This document shows positions 4,250-64,000 of a DNA stretch of 64,000 bases, in pieces (positions within the stretch are counted from its first letter, which is position 1; every line of letters begins with the position of its first letter). Both the position numbers and the translations under genes were made by a program. Below the pieces are notes generated by a model. The model saw only the letters and a list, made by a program, of their open reading frames with translations. It searched no databases and was not told the origin of the DNA. Source of the DNA: an uncultured Chloroflexia bacterium (GTDB lineage: Bacteria > Chloroflexota > Limnocylindria > Limnocylindrales > CSP1-4). The stretch lies in the NCBI GenBank assembly GCA_963766735.1, contig CAVYBU010000006.1:128001-192000 (forward strand), read 5' to 3'.

Positions 4250-5646
4250 GCGGGCACCGGGTCCCGGAGCCCCGGATCATCCACGAGTCGGGTTCGCACG
4301 GCACCAACCAGGTACAGCGAGCCCGCCACGACCACCGGTCCCTCCGCCCGGGCGAGGGCGCGATCCAGCGCGGCACCCGGGTCCGGTGCGGTCAACACCG
4401 TGCCGCCGGGCAACGCTGCACGCCACGCGGCGGCAAGATCCGCGGGTGCCATCGCCCGTGGCAGGTCCACAGCGGTGCAGACGACAGTCGCACCGGCAAG
4501 GGCGTCCGATCGGGCGGCGGCGGCGACGGTGCCGGGGACGTCCTTGTCCACCATCGCCGCCCAGACGAGCGTGAGGGGAACCGGCGGGGTGACGTCGCCC
4601 CCGGCGAGGTGGGGGCGCAGGTCGTCCAGGGCCGTCGCGAGGGCGGCGGCCCCGTCCGGATTGTGTGCGCCATCGAGGAGGACCTCCCGTCGGCCGCGCC
4701 CCGGCACGGGAGCCTCGAGCAACTCCAGCCGACCTGGCCAGGATGCGGTCGCATAGCCCTCCCGTCGCGCCGCATCCGGCACCGTCACCATCCCGGCGGC
4801 CTCGAGCGCGTCGAGCAGCGCGTCCGCAATCGCGACGTTGGCGGCCTGGTGGCGGCCCCGGAGCCCCACCGCGGTGGCACCCAGCCGCGGCAGGTCCACC
4901 GTGAGCGCGTCGCGCGTCCACCCAAGCACGGGCGGCGGCGGGGCAACGGCCAGCGGGACGCCAAGCCGGGTGCAGCGGCGGCGTACGATCGCGAGCGCCT
5001 CGCCGGAGGTGCCTGTCACGGCACGGTCGCCGCGCATCACGATGGCGGCCTTCTCCCGGGCGATCGCCGGGACCGTGGCGCCCAGCCGGTCCGTGTGGTC
5101 CAGGCCGACGTTGGTGATCACGGCCACGCCGCCGTCCCACGCGTGGGTGGCGTCGAGGCGTCCGCCGAGACCGACCTCGACGAGCGCGACGTCCGGTCGC
5201 ACCTCCGCGAAGCGGCGAAACATGATCGCGGTCAGCAGCTCGAACTCGGTCGGCTGGCCCAGGCGGCGCGCCACACGGTCGGCCAGGGGCAGGGCCTCCG
5301 TCACGAGGCGGCTGAAGTCCTCGGCCGCGATCGGCTGCCCATCGACGACGATGCGCTCCCGGTACGTGACAAGGTGAGGCTTGGGGGTTTCGCCGACGCG
5401 GTACCCGGCAGCTCGGAGTGCCGATCCGGCCAGCGCGATAACGCTCCCCTTGCCGTTGGTCCCGGCGACCAGCGCGCCACGCACGGCCAGCTGGGGATCA
5501 CCCATGGCACGCAGGAGCGCGTTCGTCCGGCCAAGCCCCAGGCGAATGCCGAACCGCCCACGGGCCTCGATCGCCGCGAGGGCTTCCGCGTAGGTGAGGT
5601 CGCCGCTCGCAGCGGAGGGCGGCGGCTCGCGGCGGGGCACGTTCAC
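4246..5646 (-). CDS. folC: Folylpolyglutamate synthase/dihydrofolate synthase
   Basis: VAGTNGKGS, EVGLGGRLDAT, WPGRLE, LDGAHNP, VAGSLYLVG; real start inferred at GTG 5646 within the longer ORF. Confidence 0.95.
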   Translation of the reverse strand: MNVPRREPPPSAASGDLTYAEALAAIEARGRFGIRLGLGRTNALLRAMGDPQLAVRGALVAGTNGKGSVIALAGSALRAAGYRVGETPKPHLVTYRERIVVDGQPIAAEDFSRLVTEALPLADRVARRLGQPTEFELLTAIMFRRFAEVRPDVALVEVGLGGRLDATHAWDGGVAVITNVGLDHTDRLGATVPAIAREKAAIVMRGDRAVTGTSGEALAIVRRRCTRLGVPLAVAPPPPVLGWTRDALTVDLPRLGATAVGLRGRHQAANVAIADALLDALEAAGMVTVPDAARREGYATASWPGRLELLEAPVPGRGRREVLLDGAHNPDGAAALATALDDLRPHLAGGDVTPPVPLTLVWAAMVDKDVPGTVAAAARSDALAGATVVCTAVDLPRAMAPADLAAAWRAALPGGTVLTAPDPGAALDRALARAEGPVVVAGSLYLVGAVRTRLVDDPGLRDPVPA

Positions 5647-8007: not shown

Positions 8008-9879
8008 TCAGGGGGTGCAGGTCCCCACGACCGCCGGGTCCTCAAAGTCGAGCTTGATCGGCGTGCCGGCCGGGTTCTTGGTGCCCGCCGCGGGCGACTG
8101 GCTCGTCACGATCCAATCCGCCGGAACCGGGTCGGGATTGAGCGTCCCGAGGCTGAACCCGTCGTCGTCGATCGTCGTCGTGGCCTTGTCGAGCTTCATG
8201 CACTTGTAGTTGCCCACGTTGGCCGGCGCCGGCGTCGGCGTCGGTGTGGGCGGCGGGGTCGGCGGCGGAGTGGGGCTCGGTGTCGGGCTCGGGGTGGGTG
8301 TGGGCGTCGGGCTCGGGGTGGGCTCAGGCCCCATCGAGACGACGTAGGCCACCGGCGACTCGGGCGCCATCAGCTGGCCGGGTCCGGGTGACTGGTCGAT
8401 GACGGACCCGAGCGGGACCTGCGGGTCGAAGGCCTCTGAGCGCGATCCCACGACGAGGCCCTCGCTGACGATCAGCTGCAGCGCCTCGGCCTCGGTCAGG
8501 CCGCTGAGGTCCGGAACGGCGACCGCGACCTTTCCCCGCGCGAGGATCAGCTTGATCTCGGCACCCTCGGCCACGAGGGCACCTTCGACGGGAGTCTGCT
8601 TGAGGACCGTCTCCGGTTCGACGTCCGCCCGCTCCTCGGTGCCATCGATGACGACGACCAGCCCGAGCTCCTTGGCGGCAACGTCGGCATCGGCATACAG
8701 CATGTCCACGAAGCTGGGGACCGTCACTTCGGCGGCCGCGCTGGGCGACGGCTCGTCCCGACCGCCGGTCAGTGTCTGGAACAGGAGGAAGCCAACGACG
8801 ATCAGGATGCCGACGCCCAGCAGTCCTGCGACCCAGGCCCACGGGGACCCACCCGTCGGCTCATCGTCGGAGATGGGCGGGGGAGGCGGCGCACCCGTCG
8901 TGGACACGGAAGGAGTGGACGACGCCGAGCGGGCGTACGCGTCGGGCGGGTAGGGCACGGGGTTCGGACGAGCCTGGGCGGACGCGACGGTCGCGGCAGC
9001 CGCGGTGGCGGCAGCCGCGCCCGCGGCGGACGCTCCGGCGGCGGTGGCACTGCTGGGATCCGCGAGATACCCCTCCAGGGCGCTGGCCATGGCGGCGGCA
9101 GTCGCATAGCGGGCGGCCGGATCCAGGGCCATCGCGCGCTGGACGACGGTGTCCAGCTGTGCCGGCACGCCGGCACGCAGGGACGAGGGGCGCGGCGGCG
9201 TGGTCGTGAGCCGGGCAAGGGCAACCGCGGCGGCACCATCGCCTGAGAACGGGCGCTGTCCGGTCAGCGTCTCGAACAGGACGATGCCCAGGGCGTAGAT
9301 GTCGGAGGCGACCGTCGCCGGCTCGCCGCGGGCCTGCTCCGGGCTGAAGTAGTGGACGGATCCCATCGTGACGCCCGGCATCGTCAGCTGGGACTCGGCG
9401 AGGGCACGCGCGATGCCGAAGTCGGCAACCTTCACGCGGCCGTCGCGACCGACGAGGACGTTGGACGGCTTGACGTCCCGGTGGACGATCCCGCGGACAT
9501 GCGCGGCGTGCAGCGCCTTCGCGACCTCCACGGAAACCCGCGCGGCCTGCCGGGGGGCCAGGGGACCGTTCTCCCGGAGGATGGCGCCAAGATCCTGGCC
9601 GTCCACCAGCTCCATGACGATGTACGGGCCGGATGCGTCCTCGCCAAAGTCGAAGACGGCCACGATGTTCGGGTGGTTGAGCGACGCGGCGGCACGCGCC
9701 TCGTCCCGGAACCGGGCGAGGAAGTCCGGGTCCTTGCCGAACTCCGGGCGGAGGAGCTTCACGGCAACATCCCGCTCGAGCTGCGCGTCGCGCGCCCGGT
9801 AGATGGTGGCCATGCCGCCCTGTCCGAGGAGCTCCAGGAGGCGGTAACGACCGCCGAGCGTGCTCCCGATCTCCGTCAC
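8008..9879 (-). CDS. pknB: PASTA-domain Ser/Thr protein kinase (PknB/Stk1 family)
   Basis: LGQGGMATIY, VAVK, HRDVKPSN, DFGIARA, SPEQARG; TM; PASTA repeats (VPSFV, VPDLSGL); SD before GTG 9879. Confidence 0.93.
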   Translation of the reverse strand: MTEIGSTLGGRYRLLELLGQGGMATIYRARDAQLERDVAVKLLRPEFGKDPDFLARFRDEARAAASLNHPNIVAVFDFGEDASGPYIVMELVDGQDLGAILRENGPLAPRQAARVSVEVAKALHAAHVRGIVHRDVKPSNVLVGRDGRVKVADFGIARALAESQLTMPGVTMGSVHYFSPEQARGEPATVASDIYALGIVLFETLTGQRPFSGDGAAAVALARLTTTPPRPSSLRAGVPAQLDTVVQRAMALDPAARYATAAAMASALEGYLADPSSATAAGASAAGAAAATAAAATVASAQARPNPVPYPPDAYARSASSTPSVSTTGAPPPPPISDDEPTGGSPWAWVAGLLGVGILIVVGFLLFQTLTGGRDEPSPSAAAEVTVPSFVDMLYADADVAAKELGLVVVIDGTEERADVEPETVLKQTPVEGALVAEGAEIKLILARGKVAVAVPDLSGLTEAEALQLIVSEGLVVGSRSEAFDPQVPLGSVIDQSPGPGQLMAPESPVAYVVSMGPEPTPSPTPTPTPSPTPSPTPPPTPPPTPTPTPAPANVGNYKCMKLDKATTTIDDDGFSLGTLNPDPVPADWIVTSQSPAAGTKNPAGTPIKLDFEDPAVVGTCTP

Positions 9880-54409: not shown

Positions 54410-54432
54410 GCTAGGTGGAAAGGAGGCGCCCG

Positions 54433-55098
54433 ATGACTCGTCACGACGCCGAACGCAAGCGCAAGATCCTGGACGTGATCGCCGCGACCATCCGCGCGCG
54501 CGGCTTCCCGCCGTCTGTCCGCGAGATCGCGAAGGCCGTCGGGCTCGCCTCCACGTCTGCCGTGCACCACCACCTCCAGATCCTCGAGAAGGAGGGCTAC
54601 CTGGAGCGCGGCGTGTCGGACGACGGCACGTCCCAGTCACGCGCCATCCGCTTCACCCCCCATGCCGCCCTGATGCTGGGTCTCGCGTCCGAGCTGACGC
54701 CCCAGACCATCCCGGGGGACTCGCACACCCTGCCGATCATCGGGGAGATCGCGGCCGGCGGCCCCATCGAGGCCTACCAGGACGCGTCCGAGACGCTTGC
54801 CGTGCCGGACATCCTCGCCCCCGCCGGGGACGCCTACGTCCTCCGCGTGCGCGGGGACTCCATGATCGAGGCCCACATCGCGGACGGGGACTTCGTCGTG
54901 ATCCGCCCGCAGGAAACAGCCAGGGACGGGGACATCGTGGTGGCCCAGGTGGAGGAGAACGCCGTCACGCTCAAGCGGTTCTTCCGGGAGAAGGACCAGG
55001 TCCGCCTCCAGCCCGCCAACACGGCCTACGCGCCGCAGTTCTACCCCTCCGTCCGGATCCAGGGCAAGCTCATCGGCGTGATCCGGCGCCTGGACTGA
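54433..55098 (+). CDS. lexA: SOS repressor LexA
   Basis: FPPSVREI..AVGL.STS.V..HL, IAAG cleavage site, GDSM, TLKR; AAGGAGG SD. Confidence 0.96.
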   Translation: MTRHDAERKRKILDVIAATIRARGFPPSVREIAKAVGLASTSAVHHHLQILEKEGYLERGVSDDGTSQSRAIRFTPHAALMLGLASELTPQTIPGDSHTLPIIGEIAAGGPIEAYQDASETLAVPDILAPAGDAYVLRVRGDSMIEAHIADGDFVVIRPQETARDGDIVVAQVEENAVTLKRFFREKDQVRLQPANTAYAPQFYPSVRIQGKLIGVIRRLD

Positions 55099-55282: not shown

Positions 55283-56632
55283 GTGATCGATCGCCTGCCG
55301 CCGCAATCCCTCGAAGCCGAGCAATCGGTTCTGGGCGCCGTGCTCATCGACCGCGACGCCATGATCGAGATCGCAGAGTTCCTCAAGCCCGAGGACTTCT
55401 ACCGGCAGGCCCACGGTCGCATCTACGCCGTGATGCTGGACCTGTCCGAGCGCCGCGAGCCGATCGACGTCGTGACGGTCTCGGAGGCCCTGGAGCGTTC
55501 CGGTGACCTCGAGACCATCGGCGGCCGCGCCTATCTGAGCACGCTGACCAACCAGACCCCGACGGCCGTGCATGCCGCGCAGTACGCGCGGATCGTGGAG
55601 CGGAAGTCGCTGCTGCGGAACCTCATCGGGGCGGCAGGCAAGATCGCAGGGATCGGCTACGAGGACCCGGCGGAGGTCCAGGAGGCGATCGACCGGGCGG
55701 AGTCAGAGCTGTTCGCCGTCAGCCAGCGGCGCGTCGGGGCCAGCTTCTCGCCCCTGAAGACGCTGCTGCACGACGCGTACGACCGCCTCGACTACCTCCA
55801 CGCGCATCGCGGGGAGATCAGCGGCATCAGAACGGGCTTCGGGGACCTGGACACGCTGACGACCGGGCTCCAGAAGAGCGACCTCGTGATCGTCGCGGCA
55901 CGGCCGTCCGTGGGCAAGACCAGCCTCGCGCTCAACATCGCGGAGCACGCGGCGGTCACGGACCGCAAGAGCGTCGGCATCTTCAGCCTCGAGATGAGCA
56001 AGGAGCAGCTCGTGCTGCGCCTTCTCTCATCCGTCGCGAACATCGACTCGCAGCGGCTGCGGACCGGCTTCCTGGAGGAGCTGGACTTCGCCCGGATCGC
56101 CCCGGCGATGAATGCCCTCTCGGAGGCGCCGATCTACATCGACGACACGCCCAACATCACCACGATGGAGCTCCGGACCAAGGCGCGCCGGCTCCAGGCA
56201 GAGGCGGGCGTCGACCTGATCATCGTGGACTACCTGCAGCTGATGCAGTCCTCCACCACCAGCCGGGATGCGAACCGCGTGCAGGAGGTCTCGGAGATCT
56301 CGCGCGGCCTCAAGGCGCTCGCCCGCGAGCTCAAGATCCCCGTGATCGCCCTCAGCCAGCTATCGCGCCAGCCGGAGATGCGCGAATCGAAGGAGCCCCG
56401 GCTCTCTGACCTCCGGGAGTCCGGCAGCATCGAGCAGGACGCGGATCTCGTGATGTTCCTGTGGCGGGAGAAGGAGCGCGGTTCGGACGACCAGGTCACC
56501 GACGGAGAGGTCGTGAAGCTCAAGCTCTCCAAGCACCGCAACGGCCCCACCGGCGAGATCGATCTGTGGTTCAAGAAGGCCCAGACGCGTTTCGTGTCCT
56601 ACGCCGGGGAGCGGTTCGCGGACGTCAACTAG
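55283..56632 (+). CDS. dnaB: Replicative DNA helicase
   Basis: PPQSLEAEQSVLG, AARPSVGKT, FSLEM, DYLQL, SDLRESGSIEQDAD, KHRNGPTG. Confidence 0.98.
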   Translation: MIDRLPPQSLEAEQSVLGAVLIDRDAMIEIAEFLKPEDFYRQAHGRIYAVMLDLSERREPIDVVTVSEALERSGDLETIGGRAYLSTLTNQTPTAVHAAQYARIVERKSLLRNLIGAAGKIAGIGYEDPAEVQEAIDRAESELFAVSQRRVGASFSPLKTLLHDAYDRLDYLHAHRGEISGIRTGFGDLDTLTTGLQKSDLVIVAARPSVGKTSLALNIAEHAAVTDRKSVGIFSLEMSKEQLVLRLLSSVANIDSQRLRTGFLEELDFARIAPAMNALSEAPIYIDDTPNITTMELRTKARRLQAEAGVDLIIVDYLQLMQSSTTSRDANRVQEVSEISRGLKALARELKIPVIALSQLSRQPEMRESKEPRLSDLRESGSIEQDADLVMFLWREKERGSDDQVTDGEVVKLKLSKHRNGPTGEIDLWFKKAQTRFVSYAGERFADVN

Positions 56633-56642
56633 ACGCCCGCCG

Positions 56643-57539
56643 CTACTGGTCCTCGTCCGGCAGCAGCGGCCGCAGGGCCAGCGAGTACAGCGTCCCGTCG
56701 GGGGCGTTGAGGTACACACCGGCCACGATCCCTCCCTCGTACCCGTCCACGCCGACGGCCGATGCCTCGGCGGGCGTCAGCACCCTCGTTCGCAACTGGA
56801 GCGTGTTCGGGTCGGCCGGGAGCGCGAAGTCGGCCGGCGTGAGGTCCGGCCACGGCCACTCGCGAACCCTGACGCCCTGGGCGCCAGCCGCATCGATCAG
56901 GACGCCGCGGAAGGCCGCGGGCTCGTACGGCGCGCTGCCCAGCGAACCGCCCCGATCGAAGTCCCGCAGTGAGTCGGCGAGCTTCATGAATGCGCCCTTG
57001 ATGGCGGTGTCGGCGTCCGGCTCCCCCATCAACCCGAGGGCGGAGATGGTGACAACCTTCGAATCGCCATCCGCGTGGATCTCGAAGACGGTGCTCGGCG
57101 CGTCGGCGACGAGCGGGTTCTGGTACTCCTTCCTGGCCGCAGCGAGGCCGCCCTCTGCCAGCGCGAACACGAGCAGGTCCTGGATCTGGGCCTCCGAGAG
57201 AGTGGCGGTGCGGACCGGGCTGCCCGTGATCACGTCATCGGCCGAGGGCGTGATCGTCGTTGAGTTGCTGACGAACACGACGCGTCCGTCGCCGTAGAGC
57301 GTGAAGTACGGGACGTGGGCGGCAATCCACTCGACGGGCACGAAGCCGCCGGCCTCGTCGGCCCGCAGGATGATCTCGTTGGCCCCGGTCGGGTGGGCCA
57401 GCCCTTCCGGAGTGGCCGTGGGCGGTGACGTCGGGTCGGTGTCGGCGGGGCGCGCGGTGCCGGAGCCCGTCGCGGTGCAGGCAGAGAGGGCGATCGCCAG
57501 GGTGAGGAGCGCGGCTGGGCGCCGCAGGCGGGTGGACAT
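56643..57539 (-). CDS. Hypothetical lipoprotein
   Basis: Lipobox LSAC; P.FTLYGDGRV, ADAPST.F, LRPLLPDE. Confidence 0.8.
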   Translation of the reverse strand: MSTRLRRPAALLTLAIALSACTATGSGTARPADTDPTSPPTATPEGLAHPTGANEIILRADEAGGFVPVEWIAAHVPYFTLYGDGRVVFVSNSTTITPSADDVITGSPVRTATLSEAQIQDLLVFALAEGGLAAARKEYQNPLVADAPSTVFEIHADGDSKVVTISALGLMGEPDADTAIKGAFMKLADSLRDFDRGGSLGSAPYEPAAFRGVLIDAAGAQGVRVREWPWPDLTPADFALPADPNTLQLRTRVLTPAEASAVGVDGYEGGIVAGVYLNAPDGTLYSLALRPLLPDEDQ

Positions 57540-57572
57540 GTCGTCCGGGACGCGGGTCCGCGCCGTGCGGTT

Positions 57573-57625
57573 CCATCGCCGTTCGGTTCCATCGCCAGTC
57601 GGCCCATCGCCGTTCGGCCCATCGC
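57573..57625. repeat. Short imperfect tandem repeat CCATCGCC(GT/AG)TCGG x3.5
   Basis: Units of 15-16 bp at 57573, 57589, 57604 and 57619. Confidence 0.8.
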
Positions 57626-57725
57626 GGGAGGCAGTCCAGTGGGGCGCTCCGTCGGTCAGGGCCCGCGGACGCCCTGCCGCCGCGAAGCCTATGCTGGCCA
57701 CGACCCAACCACCAGGAGGAGCCCG

Positions 57726-57929
57726 ATGGGCGTGATCATCATCCGGGAAATGGTCGGGACGAGCCCCCGATCGTGGAGCGACGCCGCTCGCCAGGCCGTG
57801 GCGACCGCCTCGAAGACCGTGCGCAACATCCGCACGATCGAGGTGGTGAAATCGACCGCCCAGATCGACGACGGTGAGATCGTCGAGTACGAGGTCCAGC
57901 TCAAGATCGGCTTCGAGTACGAGGGCTGA
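57726..57929 (+). CDS. Dodecin family flavin-binding protein
   Basis: EMVGTS..SW.DA...AV..ASKTVRNI...EV....GEI.EY.V.LKIGF; AGGAGG SD. Confidence 0.92.
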   Translation: MGVIIIREMVGTSPRSWSDAARQAVATASKTVRNIRTIEVVKSTAQIDDGEIVEYEVQLKIGFEYEG

Positions 57930-58247
57930 TCCCAGATAAGTCGCGGGTGAGCGGCGCGCGGCACCATGCCGCGCATGCCTGCGACGACCCATGGCTCCGA
58001 CCGCCACGGAGCCAGATCCAACCACCCAGGGCCAACCGCCCGGGTTCCCGGGCACCCGCCGCTGGGCGGCCGGGTTGACGCTGCCGATCCCGCATCCCTA
58101 TCGTTCGCGCCATCAGACGGCGCCGCTACCGGCAGCAGTTCCCGGCCGAACCCGTCGACGTCAGGGCACGAGGGACATGCGCTGGTCGCGGTCGGGCCTG
58201 GGATCGCAGGTTCAATGCTGTTCGCGGGACCGATCGGGCGGCTGGGG

Positions 58248-61200
58248 ATGAACCCGCTGCCGATCCAGCCGGCGAAGATCCACCCGCCGCTGCTCCGCCA
58301 CGATGTCCTCTCCCGAGAGCGCCTCAACGGCTGGCTGGACAACGCGGCGAACGGGCGCGTCGCGCTGGTCATCGCCGAGGCCGGGTTCGGCAAGACCACG
58401 TTCCTTGCGGACTGGGCGCGCCACACCCGACGCGCAACGGCGTGGTACCGCCTGGAACCGGATGACCGGGACTGGCTCGCCTTCATCAGGCATCTGGTCG
58501 CAAGCGGCCGGGAGATCGACCCCGGGTTCGCTCCGGATACCTACGACCTGCTGGCCGCACTGGGGCCAGGTGGTCCGTCCAGGGATGACCTGATCGTCAG
58601 CGTCGCCCAGGAGATGGCCGAACTCGCATCGTCGCTGCCCAACGGCCTGAGCCTCCTGTTCGACGACTACCACTCCGTCGACGGCAGCCCCGAGACCGAG
58701 CCCGTCATGAAGGCCCTGGTCGATCGAACGGGACCCGAATTCTCCCTGGTCATCGCGTCCCGGGCGGCGCCATCGCTCGCCCTGGGCAGGCTGCGCGCCC
58801 GCGGCGCCCTCTCGCGGATCGACGGCGACGGCCTCTGTTTCGACGTCCCCGAGACGGAGCGCCTCTTCCGGGATGCCTACCACCAGCCCCTGGACGCGGA
58901 CGTGGTGGTGGACCTGATCGCCCGGACGGAAGGCTGGGCCGCGCTCCTGTCGCTGGTCCACACGAGCCTTGAGGGCCGAGCGGCCGTCGAGGCTCGCGGG
59001 CTCGTCCGGCACCTGTCGGGCGCTCGCGGCGACATTCGTGACTATCTCGCCGAGGAGGTTCTCGACCACCTTGCTGATCATCTTGCTGACTTCTTGGTGC
59101 GCGCTTCGATCCTCGATGTTGTCGGGCCCGAGTCTGCGGCGCTACTTGGGATCGGCTCCAGAGATGAGTGCGTGGCAATGATCCGAGACGCCGCTGGCCT
59201 TGGTCTTTTGGTCGAGATCACGACGGGTGATGGCCACAGGTTCGTTCCGCTCGTTCGCGAGTACTTGTCCGCCCGTCTGAGCCGAGAAGAGGGGTGGGCC
59301 GCGATCCGCGATGCCCACATGATGCTGGGTGCGCACTACGTCGACTCTGACTGGAGGCTCGCCGCTCATCACTATCGCGCTGCGGGGCAGCCGAGTTTGG
59401 CAGTCCAAGTCATCCAGAACTCCCTGAGCACCATCCTCGGCAGCGGACAGTACCGAGCTGCAGCTGACCTACTCGCCGGTTCCGACGAACTCGTCGTAGG
59501 CGAGGTCCTTCGCTCACGACTCTTGCTACAAGTCGGCGCGGTCGCCGAAGCCCGATCCGCGTCGAGTTCCGCAGTCGCTGCCGCAGCATCGCACCGCCCA
59601 GCCGACCAATCGCTCGCTCTGCAGAACGCCGCAACGATCTCTCTGGTGTCTCGTCAGTACGAGGAAGGTCTCAAATACGCCGAAGAGGCGGAGGCGGCAG
59701 CCACCGACAGGTGGGAAGGGGAGCTCGCCCGGGCTCATGTCGCTCTGCTTGGCGCATCGGGAACTGGGAGCCTTCCGGCCCTGGTGCACCAACTTGAGCG
59801 CCTTCTGGGCGTCCAGCGCAAGCGGGCCTACTGGCATCACGCCGCCATCACAAGCCTCAACCTTGCTCAGGTCCTGGTTTGGCTGGACCGAGACACGGAA
59901 GCGCTGCGACATGCAGCCGACGCTGAAGAATTCCTGACCCGGTCATCCCAAGGCTATGAGTTGGTTTCCGTCAAGCTGGCGCAGGCTCACGCCGAGGCGC
60001 ACCTCGGTCACTGGTGCGCAGCGCAGGCACTACTCGAGACCTCAGTTCAGACAGGCCACCCCGAGGGACAGGCTGAAGCGGTTCTAGACGCGGCAGGACT
60101 TGCTGCGTGGTTCGGGCCGAACGATCTCCCAGCGCGAATCCTGGCTCAGGTTCGGCGCGAGTCCCTCCCGTCCAGCTGGAAGGCACATTGGCGTATCGTC
60201 GATTTGTGGCTTGAGGAAGAGTCGCAGCGGCGGTCAGAGATCCTCGATGAGTTGCGGGCCGATCCGCCCCCCTCACTGGAGGTGGGGGCGGCATTTCGAT
60301 GGCACTACACGAAGGCCAGGGCCTACCACGCTCAAGGGGATGCCAAAGGGTTCGACGACGAGATCGCGCGGGTTGACCAAGTCTGCCAACTCCAACGCTC
60401 ACCGGTCGAGGAGCGGCTTCAGGCGTTGCTCCGTGGGGTCGCATCAGGACCACAGCATCTGTCGAGGGTGATTGAGTCTTGGAGTCCGGCCTCCGCCCCT
60501 CTGATTGGGGTACTCGCGTACGAGGTCGCGGGCCTCCTAGGCTCCCTATCCGATGACGCCGCCGCTGCGGTTGGTCGTGCCGTGGCAGGTGCCCCATACA
60601 GATGGCGACGACCTCTGAGGGTCATGCTCGAGAAGGCCGGCCCGGCGCGACACCTGGACCGTATTGCACAACTGCTTGAGGAGATCGGCGAATCGGCCGA
60701 TGTTCAACTGCTTCGCGAGTACGGTCGTAGGTCGAAACGCGCGCGCGGAAACTGGGGCGAGGACTTGGGGCGACGACTCGCCCCGAGGGCGTTCATCGAG
60801 GATCTAGGCCCGATCTCGATCATCATTGGTGATCGCGTGATCGACGGGCGAGGAATCCGCCGCAGAGTCCTCGGCCTTCTTGCCTTTCTGATTAGCCAGC
60901 CCAACGGATCAGCAACGCCCGACCGCGTCATGGATGCACTGTGGCCTGAGTTGGACCCCGGGCAAGGGAGCAACTCGATCCACCAGACCATCTACTTCCT
61001 TCGGCGCGTGATCGACCCAGACTACCGGGCAGGCGTCTCTCCCGAGTACGTGCACTTCGATAGTGAGGTGATCTGGCTCGATCGGGATCTCGTGCAGTGC
61101 AGGAGTTGGCGCTGTCAGGCTCTCCTAGGCAAGCGCGCCCTCTCGCCATCAGAGGTCGACGAACTCGTCCGGGACTACTGCGGGCGGTTCGCGGCCGAGT

Positions 61201-61493
61201 TCCCGTACGAGGACTGGGCGTCGGACTATCGGGACCATCTACATGCGCGCTACCTGGGCGAGATCGAGAAGGTCCTCTCAGAGCCTCGTCATAGTCCAGA
61301 CCTGCGATGGAGATTATGGGTCGGCCAGCGGGCGCTTTCGGTCGATCCTGAAGCCGATGCGGTCGAGGCTCACGTGATCCGGTTGTATCGCCGACTTGGG
61401 GCGTCTGCCGCCGCGGCAGAGCAGTACGGGCACTACTCGACCGTCATGAGAGACCAGCTCGGCGTCGAGCCCCCTGGGATCGAGGACCTCTGA
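58248..61493 (+). CDS. Large MalT-like AAA ATPase - TPR - wHTH/BTAD transcriptional regulator
   Basis: KIHPP..R...RERL, Walker A AEAGFGKTT, LFDDYH, TEGWAA, DYLAEEV; helical TPR-like middle; LLAFL...DALWPE...LRRV wHTH and BTAD-like end. Confidence 0.88.
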   Translation: MNPLPIQPAKIHPPLLRHDVLSRERLNGWLDNAANGRVALVIAEAGFGKTTFLADWARHTRRATAWYRLEPDDRDWLAFIRHLVASGREIDPGFAPDTYDLLAALGPGGPSRDDLIVSVAQEMAELASSLPNGLSLLFDDYHSVDGSPETEPVMKALVDRTGPEFSLVIASRAAPSLALGRLRARGALSRIDGDGLCFDVPETERLFRDAYHQPLDADVVVDLIARTEGWAALLSLVHTSLEGRAAVEARGLVRHLSGARGDIRDYLAEEVLDHLADHLADFLVRASILDVVGPESAALLGIGSRDECVAMIRDAAGLGLLVEITTGDGHRFVPLVREYLSARLSREEGWAAIRDAHMMLGAHYVDSDWRLAAHHYRAAGQPSLAVQVIQNSLSTILGSGQYRAAADLLAGSDELVVGEVLRSRLLLQVGAVAEARSASSSAVAAAASHRPADQSLALQNAATISLVSRQYEEGLKYAEEAEAAATDRWEGELARAHVALLGASGTGSLPALVHQLERLLGVQRKRAYWHHAAITSLNLAQVLVWLDRDTEALRHAADAEEFLTRSSQGYELVSVKLAQAHAEAHLGHWCAAQALLETSVQTGHPEGQAEAVLDAAGLAAWFGPNDLPARILAQVRRESLPSSWKAHWRIVDLWLEEESQRRSEILDELRADPPPSLEVGAAFRWHYTKARAYHAQGDAKGFDDEIARVDQVCQLQRSPVEERLQALLRGVASGPQHLSRVIESWSPASAPLIGVLAYEVAGLLGSLSDDAAAAVGRAVAGAPYRWRRPLRVMLEKAGPARHLDRIAQLLEEIGESADVQLLREYGRRSKRARGNWGEDLGRRLAPRAFIEDLGPISIIIGDRVIDGRGIRRRVLGLLAFLISQPNGSATPDRVMDALWPELDPGQGSNSIHQTIYFLRRVIDPDYRAGVSPEYVHFDSEVIWLDRDLVQCRSWRCQALLGKRALSPSEVDELVRDYCGRFAAEFPYEDWASDYRDHLHARYLGEIEKVLSEPRHSPDLRWRLWVGQRALSVDPEADAVEAHVIRLYRRLGASAAAAEQYGHYSTVMRDQLGVEPPGIEDL

Positions 61494-61587
61494 TCCAGCT
61501 GGTCGCGCCCGGCGACGAATGGGCGAGCGAGCGTGTCGGTATTGGCTTCCGAGTGGGCGGCCCGGTGGGCATAGGTAGGGTTGCGTA

Positions 61588-61649
61588 TTGACCGGTGTAG
61601 TCCGCCGTGCATATAGTCCGGCCCTGCACCAGTACTTTCGTACGGTGCA
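61588..61649 (+). promoter_or_regulatory. Putative promoter with direct repeat and inverted repeat upstream of peptide genes
   Basis: TTGACC-18-TATAGT; TAGTCCG x2; TGCACC-A-GTAC-TTTC-GTAC-GGTGCA. Confidence 0.5.
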
Positions 61650-61795
61650 CCAAGGAAACGCTTGGACGCGCTGATGCCACCACCTGAAATGGGCACTTAG
61701 GGTGGAGGCGGAGCGAGTAGTGCAACCGACCGGCTTTCGAGTCAGGTCGGTTTTCGTGTTCCCGGCGGACACGGAGGCCGCAAGGAGGTACGAGC

Positions 61796-61828
61796 GTGGC
61801 ACCGAGCAAGGGCCTCAAGGGCTGGTAG
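61796..61828 (+). CDS. Putative 10-aa micropeptide MAPSKGLKGW
   Basis: Strong SD AAGGAGGT 6 nt before GTG; TAG stop; C-terminus resembles the tail of the next peptide. Confidence 0.5.
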   Translation: MAPSKGLKGW

Positions 61829-61854
61829 GACCAGGATCGCGGGAGGATCGACCG

Positions 61855-61944
61855 ATGAAGGATCGCCTCATGCGACTCCTGGCCACTCTCGGCGCAGTCG
61901 CCGCATTGGCGCTCGCCGGAGGCGCGTCGCTAAAGGGCTTCTAG
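61855..61944 (+). CDS. 29-aa signal-peptide-like precursor MKDRLMRLLATLGAVAALALAGGASLKGF
   Basis: GGGAGGA SD; basic n-region, hydrophobic h-region, LAG-G, short tail. Confidence 0.75.
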   Translation: MKDRLMRLLATLGAVAALALAGGASLKGF

Positions 61945-62029
61945 AAGCAGGCAAGGGCCTCAGTACACAAGTCCTCTTCACTTGTGGGTCGAAGGGGCTA
62001 GAGTCCCACCGTTCGGGAACTGAGGACGA

Positions 62030-63394
62030 ATGCCGACAAAGCTGAAGCTCTACATTATTGGAGTCGTAGCGACGAGCGCTATCGCGCTCGCTGCTACGAC
62101 TCGTTTGATTCCAGTCGAGGACGGGGTTGCCCTGACTGTGGGGCCGTTCGGATCTCTCTCGACTCAGGCAGGCCTCGCATTCTGGTGTGCGGTGACCCTG
62201 ATCGCGTCCGCGCTTCCCGTCCGAATGCCTCGCGGAACCATGGTGGGCGTTTCGATCGCGCCGCTGATTGCGGCCACGGTCCTGGGCGGTCCGACTGCCG
62301 GAGCCTGGGTCGCGCTCATCGGGACGACGGAGGTGCGTGAGCTGCGCGGCCGTGTTCCGTGGTACGGCTCGCTGGCCAACCACGCCGGGCTGATGATCCC
62401 CGCGATGGTGGCCGGCATGGTCATGCGAGTACTCGGCGTCCCGGGGAGCGAGGAGTACGCGATCACCTTCATCGCGGCTCTGATCGGTGCGGCCGCCTTC
62501 TTCCTGGTCAACGCGACGCTCACCGCTGCCGCGGTGGCCCTCCAAACTGAGCAGCCATTTCGCAGCGTGTTGCTGGGCGACGCCAAGGTCTTCGCCACGA
62601 ACCTAATTGGGCTTGCCCCGCTCGCTTGGCTCATGGCCCAGATGTACGAGGTAGCTTGGTGGGCGAGCTTGCTGTTCGCCGTTCCGCTCTACACGACGCG
62701 GCTCGCGTACCACAACATCATCGAGATGCGCGAGATGTTCACTCAGACCATCACCGCGCTGGCTGGGGCCGTGGACAAGCGCGATCCGTACACCAGCAAG
62801 CACTCGTGGCGGGTCAAGGAGATCGCAGGCGATATCGGACGGGTCATGCGCCTGGGCGAGAGTGACCTCGAGGCCCTCGAATGGGGCGGCCTGCTGCACG
62901 ACGTGGGCAAGATCGGCGTGCGGGACGCGGTGCTGCTCAAGCAGGAGAAGCTCAACAAGGAGGAACGGGCGCAGATGAACGCGCACCCGGTCCTCGGTGC
63001 GGAGATCATCGCGCCGGTGACGCGGCTGTCCCGGGAGCTGCCGATCATCCGCCACCACCACGAGTGGTACAACGGCTCGGGGTACCCGGACCGGCTGATC
63101 GGGGACGAGATCCCGCTGCTGGCACGCATCCTTCACGTCGCGGACGCCTTCGAGGCGATGACCGCCGCCCGGCCATACCGGATGACGCCGCTGACCTCGG
63201 AGCAGGCACTGGGCGAGCTGCGCAAGTTCGCCGGCGTCCAGTTCGATCCCAAGGTGGTGGACGCCTTCGTGAAGACAGACTGGGCCCAGGATGTGGCCGA
63301 CCCGGGCCGGACGGCGCAGGCGCGACCGATCCCGCTGATCTCGCAGCACGCGAACCGGACGGCCAACGCCGTTGCCACTCCCGACGCAACCTGA
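62030..63394 (+). CDS. Membrane-sensor (MASE-like, about 7-8 TM) HD-GYP c-di-GMP phosphodiesterase
   Basis: N-terminal TMs; DKRDPYTSKHS, LHDVGKIG, HHHEWYNGSGYP, ADAFEAMT..RPYR, QFDP. Confidence 0.92.
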   Translation: MPTKLKLYIIGVVATSAIALAATTRLIPVEDGVALTVGPFGSLSTQAGLAFWCAVTLIASALPVRMPRGTMVGVSIAPLIAATVLGGPTAGAWVALIGTTEVRELRGRVPWYGSLANHAGLMIPAMVAGMVMRVLGVPGSEEYAITFIAALIGAAAFFLVNATLTAAAVALQTEQPFRSVLLGDAKVFATNLIGLAPLAWLMAQMYEVAWWASLLFAVPLYTTRLAYHNIIEMREMFTQTITALAGAVDKRDPYTSKHSWRVKEIAGDIGRVMRLGESDLEALEWGGLLHDVGKIGVRDAVLLKQEKLNKEERAQMNAHPVLGAEIIAPVTRLSRELPIIRHHHEWYNGSGYPDRLIGDEIPLLARILHVADAFEAMTAARPYRMTPLTSEQALGELRKFAGVQFDPKVVDAFVKTDWAQDVADPGRTAQARPIPLISQHANRTANAVATPDAT

Positions 63395-63503
63395 GCACTT
63401 CCGCCTCGCCGGACAGCCTCGGCGGAGGTCGCACGGGTCGTAGCGGCAAACCGCTGCGGCACTGGCCGCACATGGATCGGGTGCCCGGCCCCACAATCTC
63501 GGG

Positions 63504-64000
63504 ATGCTGATCGGCGGTATCGCGCTCGGGCTGGTGCTCGGTCTGCTCCTGGGCGGGCGCCTGGAGAACCTGGCCGGCATCCGGCTGCGCTTCCTGCCGC
63601 TGCTGTTCGCGGCGGTGATCCTGCGGTTTGCGACGGAGGCGCTGCTCGGGATGGGCGTCGAGGTCGTGGACCTGCTGCGCGTGCCGCTGCTCGGAGGCGC
63701 GTACGGGCTCCTGCTCTTCACCCTCTGGCACAACCGCTCGTACCCGGGCCTGGCGCTGGCCTTCATCGGGATCGCGTCCAACACCCTGGTGATCGTGTGG
63801 AACGGGGGCTGGATGCCGGTGTGGCAGCCCGCCTACGACGCGTCCGGGCTGGCGGGACCGCTCTACTCGCAGCTCCACTTCCCGATCAGTGGCACCGGCG
63901 CCGAGTTCCTGGTCCACCTGGGCCCGCTGGCGGACGTCGTCCCGTTCCCCATCCCACCGCTGCAGAACGTCGCCTCGGTCGGTGACCTGTTCCTGACGGC
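63504..64000 (+). CDS. DUF5317-family membrane protein, 3'-partial
   Basis: Translated by hand: MLIGGIALGLVLGLLLGGRL.NL..IRLR...N..VI..NGGWMPV...LADVVP...SVGD; runs off the window. Confidence 0.85.
   Translation, partial: MLIGGIALGLVLGLLLGGRLENLAGIRLRFLPLLFAAVILRFATEALLGMGVEVVDLLRVPLLGGAYGLLLFTLWHNRSYPGLALAFIGIASNTLVIVWNGGWMPVWQPAYDASGLAGPLYSQLHFPISGTGAEFLVHLGPLADVVPFPIPPLQNVASVGDLFLT

Follow-up and report, generated by a model that had tools for sequence, protein, structure and literature searches.

Class II riboswitches for cyclic di-GMP (c-di-GMP) were first described in Clostridia and Deinococcus and can control genes via a terminator, and riboswitch control of the genes for c-di-GMP turnover is a known theme. 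Also known are two kinds of very small gene product: regulatory leader or arrest peptides, such as TnaC, SecM, MifM and the peptides of the erm leaders, and small single-helix membrane proteins, such as MgrB (with PhoQ), AcrZ (with AcrB) and KdpF, which modulate sensors or transporters. Here we describe a locus in a 64,000-nucleotide stretch of DNA (the window; contig CAVYBU010000006.1, positions 128,001 to 192,000) from an uncultured Chloroflexia bacterium, in which a c-di-GMP-II riboswitch, two mini-open reading frames (mini-ORFs), a gene for a membrane-anchored HD-GYP phosphodiesterase and a gene that begins with the domain DUF5317 follow one another.

For most c-di-GMP enzymes, especially those with membrane-embedded sensors such as MASE9, the signal is unknown, and the locus supplies a testable candidate for such a signal in its co-encoded tiny peptides and the five-helix DUF5317. 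MASE9-HD-GYP enzymes combine an integral-membrane N-terminal domain with a complete HD-GYP domain, and the part of the preprint by Galperin and Chou used here suggests ligand binding within the membrane (10.1101/2021.11.05.467447).

Results

The region (G+C content, 63 to 71%) carries, in order on the + strand, a regulator gene, a 536-nt intergenic leader, the HD-GYP gene and the DUF5317 gene, the last of which crosses the end of the window. An earlier note on this DNA had listed the regulator, two tiny peptides, the HD-GYP enzyme and DUF5317 and had proposed that they form a quorum-sensing system with a c-di-GMP output. All of the elements that it listed were found in their places and co-oriented on this strand; it had overlooked the c-di-GMP-II riboswitch that heads the operon. 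This element was detected at 61655 to 61738 by an Rfam scan of positions 57000 to 64000 (+ strand), in which the covariance model RF01786 matched over its full length (model positions 1 to 84 of 84) with 59.5 bits (gathering score, 53.5) and an E value of 1e-11 to 1e-12. A control search for c-di-GMP-II riboswitches gave matches in Deinococcus radiodurans. A conserved promoter precedes the riboswitch and a terminator overlaps it, and the mini-ORFs and the HD-GYP and DUF5317 genes all lie downstream.

Orthologous loci of the same genus were collected by a genome search with the HD-GYP protein. All 14 distinct loci had the same gene order and a riboswitch 5′ of the HD-GYP orthologue, which scored at or above the cut-off in 11 of them and 49 to 51 bits in the other 3. 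Among 19 further loci from two families, the aptamer reached the Rfam cut-off in 11. An RNAalifold fold of 31 leaders, which did not capture helix P1, revealed compensatory changes in helix P2, with column pairs 36/64, 37/63 and 39/60 altered on both sides in 4 to 6 sequences.

The promoter (61570 to 61617), located by a consensus scan and alignments, is sigma-70-like, with a −35 box TTGACC (61588 to 61593), an 18-nt spacer and a −10 box TATAGT (61612 to 61617). Its columns were invariant in 15 of 15 same-genus leaders, and the same layout was seen across representatives of the family. Directly 5′ of the −35 box is a conserved element (61570 to 61587), identical throughout the genus and similar in the rest of the family, which is a candidate binding site for the regulator. 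Alignments also placed a hairpin of the form ..AGTAC-NNNN-GTAC.. at the predicted 5′ end of the transcript (61626 to 61648), conserved in both families; G-U wobble changes suggest that it pairs at the RNA level, and it may serve in RNA stability or as an operator. At the other end of the riboswitch lies a terminator-like hairpin of nine pairs (61728 to 61752) with a short U-rich tail, TTCGTGTTCC, which ends at 61762. The 5′ arm of this hairpin shares 11 nt with the end of the aptamer, which forms the 3′ strand of P1. The terminator was nearly invariant in the 31 leaders (columns 83 to 110) and is followed by a second hairpin with compensatory changes (columns 111 to 144). As the arm is shared with P1, ligand binding should block the terminator, and we infer that the riboswitch acts as an ON switch.

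Contigs from four RNA-library runs, one from each of four studies, were compared with the window; such contigs give no strand, ends or level, and RNA libraries can contain DNA. Together, contigs from three of the studies that depart from the window in no more than 1 place cover 61636 to 61952. One of these, with zero differences, extends from just past the promoter to the terminator tail (61636 to 61761), and one bridges the terminator and both mini-ORFs (61664 to 61952). They hint weakly at transcription of the leader and at the existence of both terminated and read-through forms. Contigs from two studies end at 61951 and 61952, where strain variation starts, which can itself break contigs. 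No near-identical contig was found over the HD-GYP coding region in the four runs, an absence of cover that proves nothing. Short matches at about 62880 to 62940 were rejected, as unlike letters on both flanks make them look like HD-GYP genes of other organisms.

Both mini-ORFs exist as the earlier note had described them and were kept in 14 of 14 distinct same-genus loci. The first, of 10 codons (61796 to 61828), has a GTG start, a Shine-Dalgarno sequence, AGGAGG, 7 nt upstream and a K-G-W-stop end (..LKGW); the second, of 29 codons (61855 to 61944), starts with ATG and ends in ..LKGF. Single-base codon differences in the 29-amino-acid (29-aa) ORF of the 14 same-genus loci were synonymous in 893 cases and nonsynonymous in 269, the third position varied in 25 of the 29 codons and the second position in 10, and the stop codon was TAG in 7, TGA in 5 and TAA in 2. 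This synonymous excess, the third-position variation and the interchange of stop codons argue that the 29-aa ORF is a translated gene. The 14 aligned peptides had 12 invariant positions, including A-G-G-A-S and the final G-F, and none contained a cysteine. A basic N terminus is followed by a hydrophobic stretch of about 15 residues, A-G-G-A-S and [LI]-[KRT]-G-F-stop, and the product is most likely a single-helix membrane peptide with its N terminus inside. The 10-codon ORF keeps its length, its start, Pro at position 3, K-x-W and its stop codon (TAG in 13, TAA in 1), and codons 4 to 7 are free to change (39 synonymous versus 172 nonsynonymous differences). That both mini-ORFs are translated is indicated only by these conservation patterns.

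Both mini-ORFs were conserved across two families, probably of the Chloroflexota class Limnocylindria. A 6- to 10-codon ORF ending in [KR]-x-[WF]-stop was present in 34 of the 37 loci in which a 29-aa ORF was located (39 loci screened). A peptide profile detected the 29-aa ORF in 76 of 151 genomes and 31 of 49 genera of the family (a tally that includes the unpublished genome G121) and, in a draw of 401 genomes from the phylum, only in this family (12 of 23) and in a single sister family within the class (7 of 16). The sister-family peptide has the tail ..AGGAS[FL][KR]GW, and its upstream ORF has 8 or 9 codons, an ATG start and a K-[GS]-W end. When 12 loci of profile-negative genera were inspected, all 12 contained a 6- to 10-codon ORF ending in [KR]-x-W and 10 a diverged 28- or 29-aa peptide with a GG-x6 tail. 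Public gene calls included 21 relatives of the 29-aa peptide, 19 of them exactly 29 aa long; none of the 21 bore a functional name, all being nameless or termed "hypothetical protein." An Atlas search gave unnamed clusters of 29- to 30-aa proteins, which serve as a lead only.

Between the stop codon of the 29-aa ORF and the HD-GYP start is a structured spacer (61945 to 62029). In the genus alignment, CCTCAGT after the 29-aa ORF can pair with ACTGAGG, which holds the HD-GYP Shine-Dalgarno sequence, and in 22 of 31 loci the spacer folded with an energy lower than the mean of its shuffles by 5 kcal/mol or more. End-to-end pairing, present in 26 of 31 folds, was discarded as evidence, since it was equalled or beaten by 5 to 58 of 100 shuffles. 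A motif, TAGAGT or TACAGT, was conserved in the 31 related loci (alignment A6) about 45 nt before the HD-GYP start (61970 to 61995). It looks like the main promoter's −10 box, often has a GGAGGG loop alongside, and may be the −10 box of an internal promoter, part of a hairpin or a ribosome standby site.

The enzyme gene (62030 to 63394) encodes a protein with a MASE9-like N terminus. Its assignment as an HD-GYP protein was confirmed by a Pfam match to HD_5 (129.9 bits) and by the sequence HHEWYNGSGYP, which fits HHExx[DN]GxGYP as defined in the part of the Galperin and Chou preprint used here (10.1101/2021.11.05.467447). An orthologue (E ≤ 1e-80) was present in 123 of 151 family genomes (including the unpublished G121 and G178) and was hence more widespread than matches to the peptide profile (123 versus 76). 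A paralogue in one of the more distant loci described below (L126) matched MASE9 with 22.5 bits.

DUF5317 (PF17248) was likewise confirmed, from position 63504 to the window end at 64000, with 72 to 76 bits against a Pfam cut-off of 25. When the genome sequence was read past the window end, the domain proved to be the first 190 or so residues of a 719-aa ORF, which ends at window-equivalent position 65663 and continues with a low-complexity linker and an efflux-type transporter of the major facilitator superfamily (MFS; MFS_1/MFS_3). The MFS part matched the H+ antiporter family TIGR00900, with Mef- and EntS-like NCBIfam matches under their cut-offs, and the frame of the fusion was unbroken in 22 of 26 related loci. 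An AlphaFold2 model of DUF5317 built from 42 sequences (predicted local distance difference test [pLDDT], 93.7) comprises five long helices, with a small sheet of four strands inserted between helices 4 and 5. Residues N77, P81, G82, N93, N100, M104, P105, D144, S158, G160 and D161 are invariant or nearly so. The positive-inside rule, applied to this model, would place the N terminus and the sheet-bearing loop outside and the C terminus in the cytoplasm, which fits the fusion to the cytoplasmic N terminus of the MFS part. With this topology the conserved polar residues would therefore face outward, where the GG-x6-aromatic tail of an N-in peptide would also sit.

A predicted complex of DUF5317 and the 29-aa peptide scored 0.42, against 0.00 for the best of three controls, with a pLDDT of 68 for the partner and at least 95% of contacts shared between runs. 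This is weak support for an interaction: in the calibration, which contained no protein of fewer than 30 residues and so puts the peptide below its range, 58 of 80 solved complexes and 2 of 110 mismatched pairs passed the mark, and just 7 of those 80 complexes, as well as both passing mismatches, did so at scores of ≤0.60.

A DUF5317 profile matched 5,732 representatives among 1.84 billion proteins. Ten longer matches, scanned for fusions to c-di-GMP domains, contained just MFS fusions. The domain also occurs in Thermus and Thermotoga (control), and a lead from the Atlas search points to Actinomycetota.

A scan for distant DUF5317 genes (query alignment A5) gave 80 loci with a stand-alone domain of about 178 aa. 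The titles of 76 of these name Chloroflexota, Chloroflexia, Anaerolineaceae or Limnocylindria/-ales; of the other four, one is titled Methylomirabilota (L149) and two Verrucomicrobiia (L184 and L189), and L162 contained no DUF5317 match. Pfam analysis of the neighbours in eight stand-alone loci detected GAF-GGDEF-EAL (3 loci) or HD-GYP (2 loci) genes ending at the DUF5317 start. Weak matches to the peptide profile over the 80 loci clustered directly 3′ of DUF5317, where one or two tandem ORFs of about 30 aa were found, encoding a basic N terminus, some 20 hydrophobic residues and an end of the form ..GAGMRW-x or ..EAGQRW-x. Codon statistics for these peptides were not clean, as unequal tail lengths misalign. 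The two small ORFs of a tandem share a tail that depends on the module type, K-G-[WF] in the window and its relatives and R-W-x in the stand-alone module.

These associations were counted for the 74 stand-alone copies with enough flank, scoring an enzyme gene (GGDEF-EAL or HD-GYP) that ends ≤400 nt upstream and ORFs of about 30 aa that lie ≤700 nt downstream and end in ..[AGS]G-x-[RK]W-x. Both enzyme and peptides were present beside 21 copies, the enzyme only beside 7, peptides only beside 6 and neither beside 40. Since c-di-GMP enzymes account, by our own estimate, for about 1% of the genes in a genome, the 28 of 74 enzyme-adjacent copies are a large excess. The check proposed in the earlier note, a search for short ORFs with GA-x(2-5)-aromatic-type ends beside DUF5317 in other genomes, was thus positive for 27 of 74 copies, and the absence of such ORFs from other genomes, which that note had named as counter-evidence, was not observed. 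Judged by these gene neighbourhoods, c-di-GMP enzyme, DUF5317 and tiny peptides form a real module that recurs within the class. An MFS match was found in just 1 of the 80 stand-alone loci. The MFS fusion thus goes with the module type whose first peptide has no hydrophobic segment, which suggests that the transporter may carry the leaderless peptide outward. Some stand-alone modules contain two DUF5317 genes (L157, L160, L182, L184, L186 and L189); in L160, L184, L186 and L189 the pair flanks a GAF-GGDEF-EAL gene, followed by two peptide ORFs. In L126 the order is HD-GYP, DUF5317, GAF-GGDEF gene and peptides.

Upstream of the leader, the regulator (58248 to 61493, within an ORF of 57966 to 61493) consists of a MalT-like N terminus of the STAND (signal transduction ATPases with numerous domains) type, an unassigned helical middle of about 530 aa and a putative DNA-binding C terminus with a possible winged helix and BTAD. 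The earlier note had called it an ATPase-tetratricopeptide repeat (TPR)-BTAD regulator. The BTAD (23.4 bits against a cut-off of 22.1) and the ATPase, which is MalT-like, were borne out, and the TPR part had no match above noise: none was detected in residues 385 to 917, the best being TPR_2 with 8.3 bits and an E value of 3.8, and the middle stretch of some 530 residues had no match of any kind. The N-terminal 385 aa matched the nucleotide-binding module of MalT (8bob; E = 2.7e-27). Matches to AAA_16 (22.4 bits) and Trans_reg_C (19.2 bits, cut-off 26.2) were both below cut-off, as was the NCBIfam MalT match (165.8 bits) with respect to its equivalog cut-off. The BTAD and Trans_reg_C matches both fall in the last 200 or so residues. 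In tblastn searches the regulator was next to the leader in every locus of the family (20 of 20) and of the sister family (7 of 7). This adjacency is its only link to the peptides, and the proposal that it is a TPR sensor of peptides was not upheld.

The order regulator, leader, HD-GYP and DUF5317-MFS was found in 20 of 20 family loci (genus representatives) and in every sister-family locus long enough to reveal it (6 of 7), the remaining contig breaking off within the HD-GYP gene. The core of the cluster is intact in the sister family and no longer has the genes for the replicative helicase DnaB and dodecin next to it. In the window these genes lie upstream, at 55283 to 56632 (DnaB) and 57639 to 57929 (dodecin), together with a gene for LexA (Peptidase_S24 and LexA_DNA_bind; 54415 to 55098) and a 470-aa ORF on the minus strand (56643 to 58055) to which Pfam gave no match. 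Throughout the family, though not in the sister family, the module keeps its synteny with DnaB, dodecin and the 470-aa ORF. A protein-L-isoaspartate O-methyltransferase (PCMT) gene follows the MFS part (L001:8413-9072; window-equivalent 66413 to 67072) and occupies this place in 13 of the 20 loci of the family and 4 of the 7 of the sister family.

A second full copy of the module was found in the same assembly, G000 (contig C10:4657-7033; loci L003, L035 and L108). Its aptamer and both mini-ORFs are identical to those of the window, its HD-GYP is 87% identical and is broken across two frames close to the start, and its regulator is just 42% identical over the last 275 or so residues. This copy could represent a paralogue, or its contig could belong to a second strain (the estimated contamination is 4.2%); two copies of the module also occur in another genome of the genus, G014. 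The assembly furthermore contains at least 10 copies of the c-di-GMP-II-GAG variant (RF03169; 55 to 76 bits, cut-off 40), the ligand of which, to our knowledge, is not established. They are found at C2:353897-353982, C8:11144-11226 and C3:312819-312903 and, in a row on C7, at 2913-2999, 5530-5616 and 8174-8259 (loci L004 to L009), with further copies within these loci. Several of the copies on C7 each precede an ORF with a signal-peptide- or lipoprotein-like start.

Discussion

We hold with moderate confidence that the locus is a c-di-GMP-induced phosphodiesterase operon with a feedback loop, in which the peptide and DUF5317 tune the membrane sensor of the enzyme. The sigma-70-like promoter 3′ of the regulator gene would drive a leader carrying the class II riboswitch, and the c-di-GMP-bound aptamer would keep the 5′ arm of the terminator, so that transcription continues into an RNA encoding the 10-codon ORF, the 29-codon ORF, the HD-GYP enzyme and the DUF5317-MFS fusion. 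By its family function the HD-GYP enzyme would then degrade c-di-GMP and close a negative feedback. As the riboswitch gates the operon, c-di-GMP would be an input as well as an output, and a feedback loop is the simplest reading. The 29-aa membrane peptide, with its GG-x6 aromatic tail at the outer face, would work there with DUF5317, whose conserved polar residues N77, N93, N100, D144 and S158-x-G-D161 would lie on that side too; DUF5317 would repeatedly accompany membrane c-di-GMP enzymes in this class as an accessory, and the pair would jointly tune or report on the membrane sensor. The 10-codon ORF could have a cis role, its translation or termination setting downstream expression, or encode a leaderless peptide that is exported by the fused MFS part. 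The link between peptides, DUF5317 and c-di-GMP enzymes made in the earlier note recurs (both partners beside 21 of 74 copies); its quorum-sensing part gives way, as the riboswitch favours a feedback loop.

Several observations weigh against the operon and tuning model. The MASE9 match (PF20972) of the enzyme, 23.4 bits, is just below the Pfam cut-off of 24.3; the aptamer is under the Rfam cut-off in 8 of the 19 further loci; the terminator has only about four U's, and the folding energy of the leader is just 1.84 standard deviations under that of shuffles. The profile missed the peptide in 47 genomes with an HD-GYP orthologue, and in 2 of the 12 profile-negative loci, both of one genus, a pattern search gave no 29-aa-type peptide. 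The last five residues of the two ORFs do agree slightly better within a locus (1.61 identical positions) than between loci (1.44; 51 distinct pairs), an agreement reached by 26 of 5,000 shuffles, and identical 5-mers in three lineages speak for the model, but kinship of the genomes inflates this test. Kinship also means that the counts of stand-alone modules are not independent, and 40 of those 74 copies are beside neither enzyme nor peptide. Synteny in the family extends to DnaB, dodecin and PCMT, so that the conserved order may reflect plain vertical inheritance. The 9 PDB matches of the DUF5317 model in a Foldseek search all had E ≥ 3, so that none reached E ≤ 0.001, and the score of the predicted complex falls in a range in which most passes are wrong, barring an interaction that was likely beforehand.

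A more far-reaching reading, which we regard as improbable, is that DUF5317 is an outer-face peptide-binding or -processing domain for membrane c-di-GMP enzymes and that the two mini-peptides with matching tails are its ligands in a peptide circuit. In the stand-alone form each peptide would have its own membrane or signal segment, and in the form seen in the window the first peptide would have shrunk to a leaderless 6- to 10-mer and DUF5317 would have gained a fused MFS exporter to deliver it outward. The circuit would be autocrine or cell to cell, with its production gated by the c-di-GMP riboswitch and c-di-GMP hydrolysis as its output.

It is similarly unlikely that both mini-ORFs are purely cis-acting leader ORFs with no trans function, at which translation, or pausing at K-x-aromatic-stop, opens an RNA structure or prevents premature termination. 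Such a role would suit the 10-codon ORF, conserved just in length, start and last three residues like known regulatory leader peptides, and the stable spacer fold, whose base adjoins the 29-aa stop codon and the HD-GYP ribosome-binding site; it would also suit the similarity of the two tails when only one of the ORFs has a membrane segment. However, purifying selection acts over the whole 29-aa sequence and not on its end alone, similar peptide ORFs lie downstream of stand-alone DUF5317 genes and so cannot be their leaders, and the end-to-end pairing of the spacer is no better than that of shuffled sequence.

Rather more doubtful is the scheme closest to the earlier note, in which DUF5317 cuts a 29-aa precursor after GG, the MFS part exports the product, the HD-GYP membrane domain senses it as an extracellular (quorum or autocrine) signal, and the regulator senses the 10-mer or re-imported peptide. 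The peptide has the parts of a precursor (basic N terminus, hydrophobic core, invariant A-G-G-A-S and short aromatic tail), DUF5317 is fused to an efflux-type MFS transporter and by the topology reasoning has conserved Asp, Asn and Ser on its outer side, peptide ORFs recur beside it, and the regulator, of a ligand-sensing STAND type, is always adjacent. On the conserved D144 and S-x-G-D161 and the small β-sheet of the model, likeness to signal peptidase II or to GxGD-type aspartyl proteases was entertained, and it is speculation only, Foldseek having given no PDB likeness to either. That DUF5317 matures the peptide is still a guess, as no solved protease or other fold in the Foldseek search resembled it. 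Nor did the Pfam scan of the locus genes reveal a C39 peptidase, an ABC transporter or an AgrB-like match (oligopeptide-permease genes were not searched for). The peptide has no cysteine for a thiolactone, its tail is conserved family-wide rather than diversifying, no TPR was detected in the regulator, and gating of the operon by an intracellular signal is something that a cell-density sensor would not need.

That the neighbourhood is incidental, with DUF5317-MFS serving in efflux with no tie to c-di-GMP and the small ORFs conserved as RNA and not as coding sequence, is very improbable: the family synteny does include unrelated housekeeping genes and 40 of the 74 stand-alone copies are beside neither enzyme nor peptides, but third positions vary while amino acids are kept, stop codons interchange, a variable middle codon stands between invariant Lys and Trp codons, 28 of the 74 copies directly follow a c-di-GMP enzyme gene, and the cluster holds together in the sister family despite different flanks.

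On the operon and tuning model, which we favour over these alternatives, a class II c-di-GMP riboswitch driving a phosphodiesterase would form a clean homeostatic loop with two conserved mini-ORFs inside its leader, and if either mini-ORF acts in cis, a riboswitch and a leader peptide would operate in series. The host organisms are uncultured, and the parts are small enough for synthesis and heterologous expression. Our literature search found no paper naming DUF5317, none on c-di-GMP in Limnocylindria and no description of mini-ORFs in a c-di-GMP riboswitch leader or of the trio of enzyme, DUF5317 and peptide. Class II c-di-GMP riboswitches and MASE9-HD-GYP enzymes are already described; their combination here is undescribed as far as searched.

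Comparison with known systems

The regulator shares its N-terminal module with MalT by homology, with a putative SARP (Streptomyces antibiotic regulatory protein)-type end in place of the LuxR-type end of MalT. With SARPs such as AfsR it would share a C-terminal winged helix, for which the match here is below its cut-off, and BTAD; AfsR-type SARPs have the reverse domain order.

Among peptide-signalling systems, RRNPP, Rgg-SHP and ComRS systems and double-glycine export share with this locus a tiny precursor with a basic N terminus, a hydrophobic core and a short C-terminal part, a double glycine, an adjacent large ligand-sensing regulator and a processing-like domain fused to an exporter. The RRNPP receptor is a cytoplasmic TPR protein with a DNA-binding domain, and its peptide is secreted, processed and taken up again through an oligopeptide permease; the regulator here is MalT-like with a putative SARP-type end and no TPR match. 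The agr systems have a cysteine or serine (thio)lactone and AgrB; here the peptide has no cysteine, and no AgrB match appeared when the locus genes were scanned with Pfam. GG is invariant as in double-glycine precursors handled by peptidase-ABC exporters, but the fused exporter is an MFS protein and the fused domain DUF5317, not C39/ABC. The likeness to agr, com and RRNPP systems drawn in the earlier note is further weakened by the tail, which is conserved throughout the family and shows no pherotype diversification. Expression here, unlike that of RRNPP and double-glycine systems, would be gated by c-di-GMP. Although the locus belongs to none of these types by the features compared, it may yet operate as a peptide-ligand system.

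Small membrane proteins of the MgrB, AcrZ and KdpF type are similar in having some 30 residues, one hydrophobic helix with small-residue motifs and a gene beside that of the partner. The partner in this case would be DUF5317 and/or the c-di-GMP enzyme; in contrast to that type, the tail is the best conserved part, and a second, helix-less mini-ORF has the same tail. Leader and arrest peptides share with the mini-ORFs a very short upstream ORF, conserved mainly at the C terminus and stop, before a structured RNA. We know of no arrest motif K-x-W-stop, and the tail here is also found, in contrast to those peptides, on membrane peptides encoded downstream of genes.

The enzyme here has, like MASE9-HD-GYP phosphodiesterases, a membrane N-terminal domain followed by a complete HD-GYP domain; its own MASE9 score is just under the cut-off. 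A riboswitch, DUF5317 and small peptide partners, all present here, are not mentioned in the part of the preprint on these enzymes that was used (10.1101/2021.11.05.467447).

In its control the locus matches the known c-di-GMP-II switches, with the same aptamer class, a 5′ leader position and an overlapping terminator that would give an ON switch. The locus differs from them in the two conserved mini-ORFs and the structured spacer between the switch and the enzyme gene, an arrangement that is conserved in two families of an uncultured Chloroflexota class.

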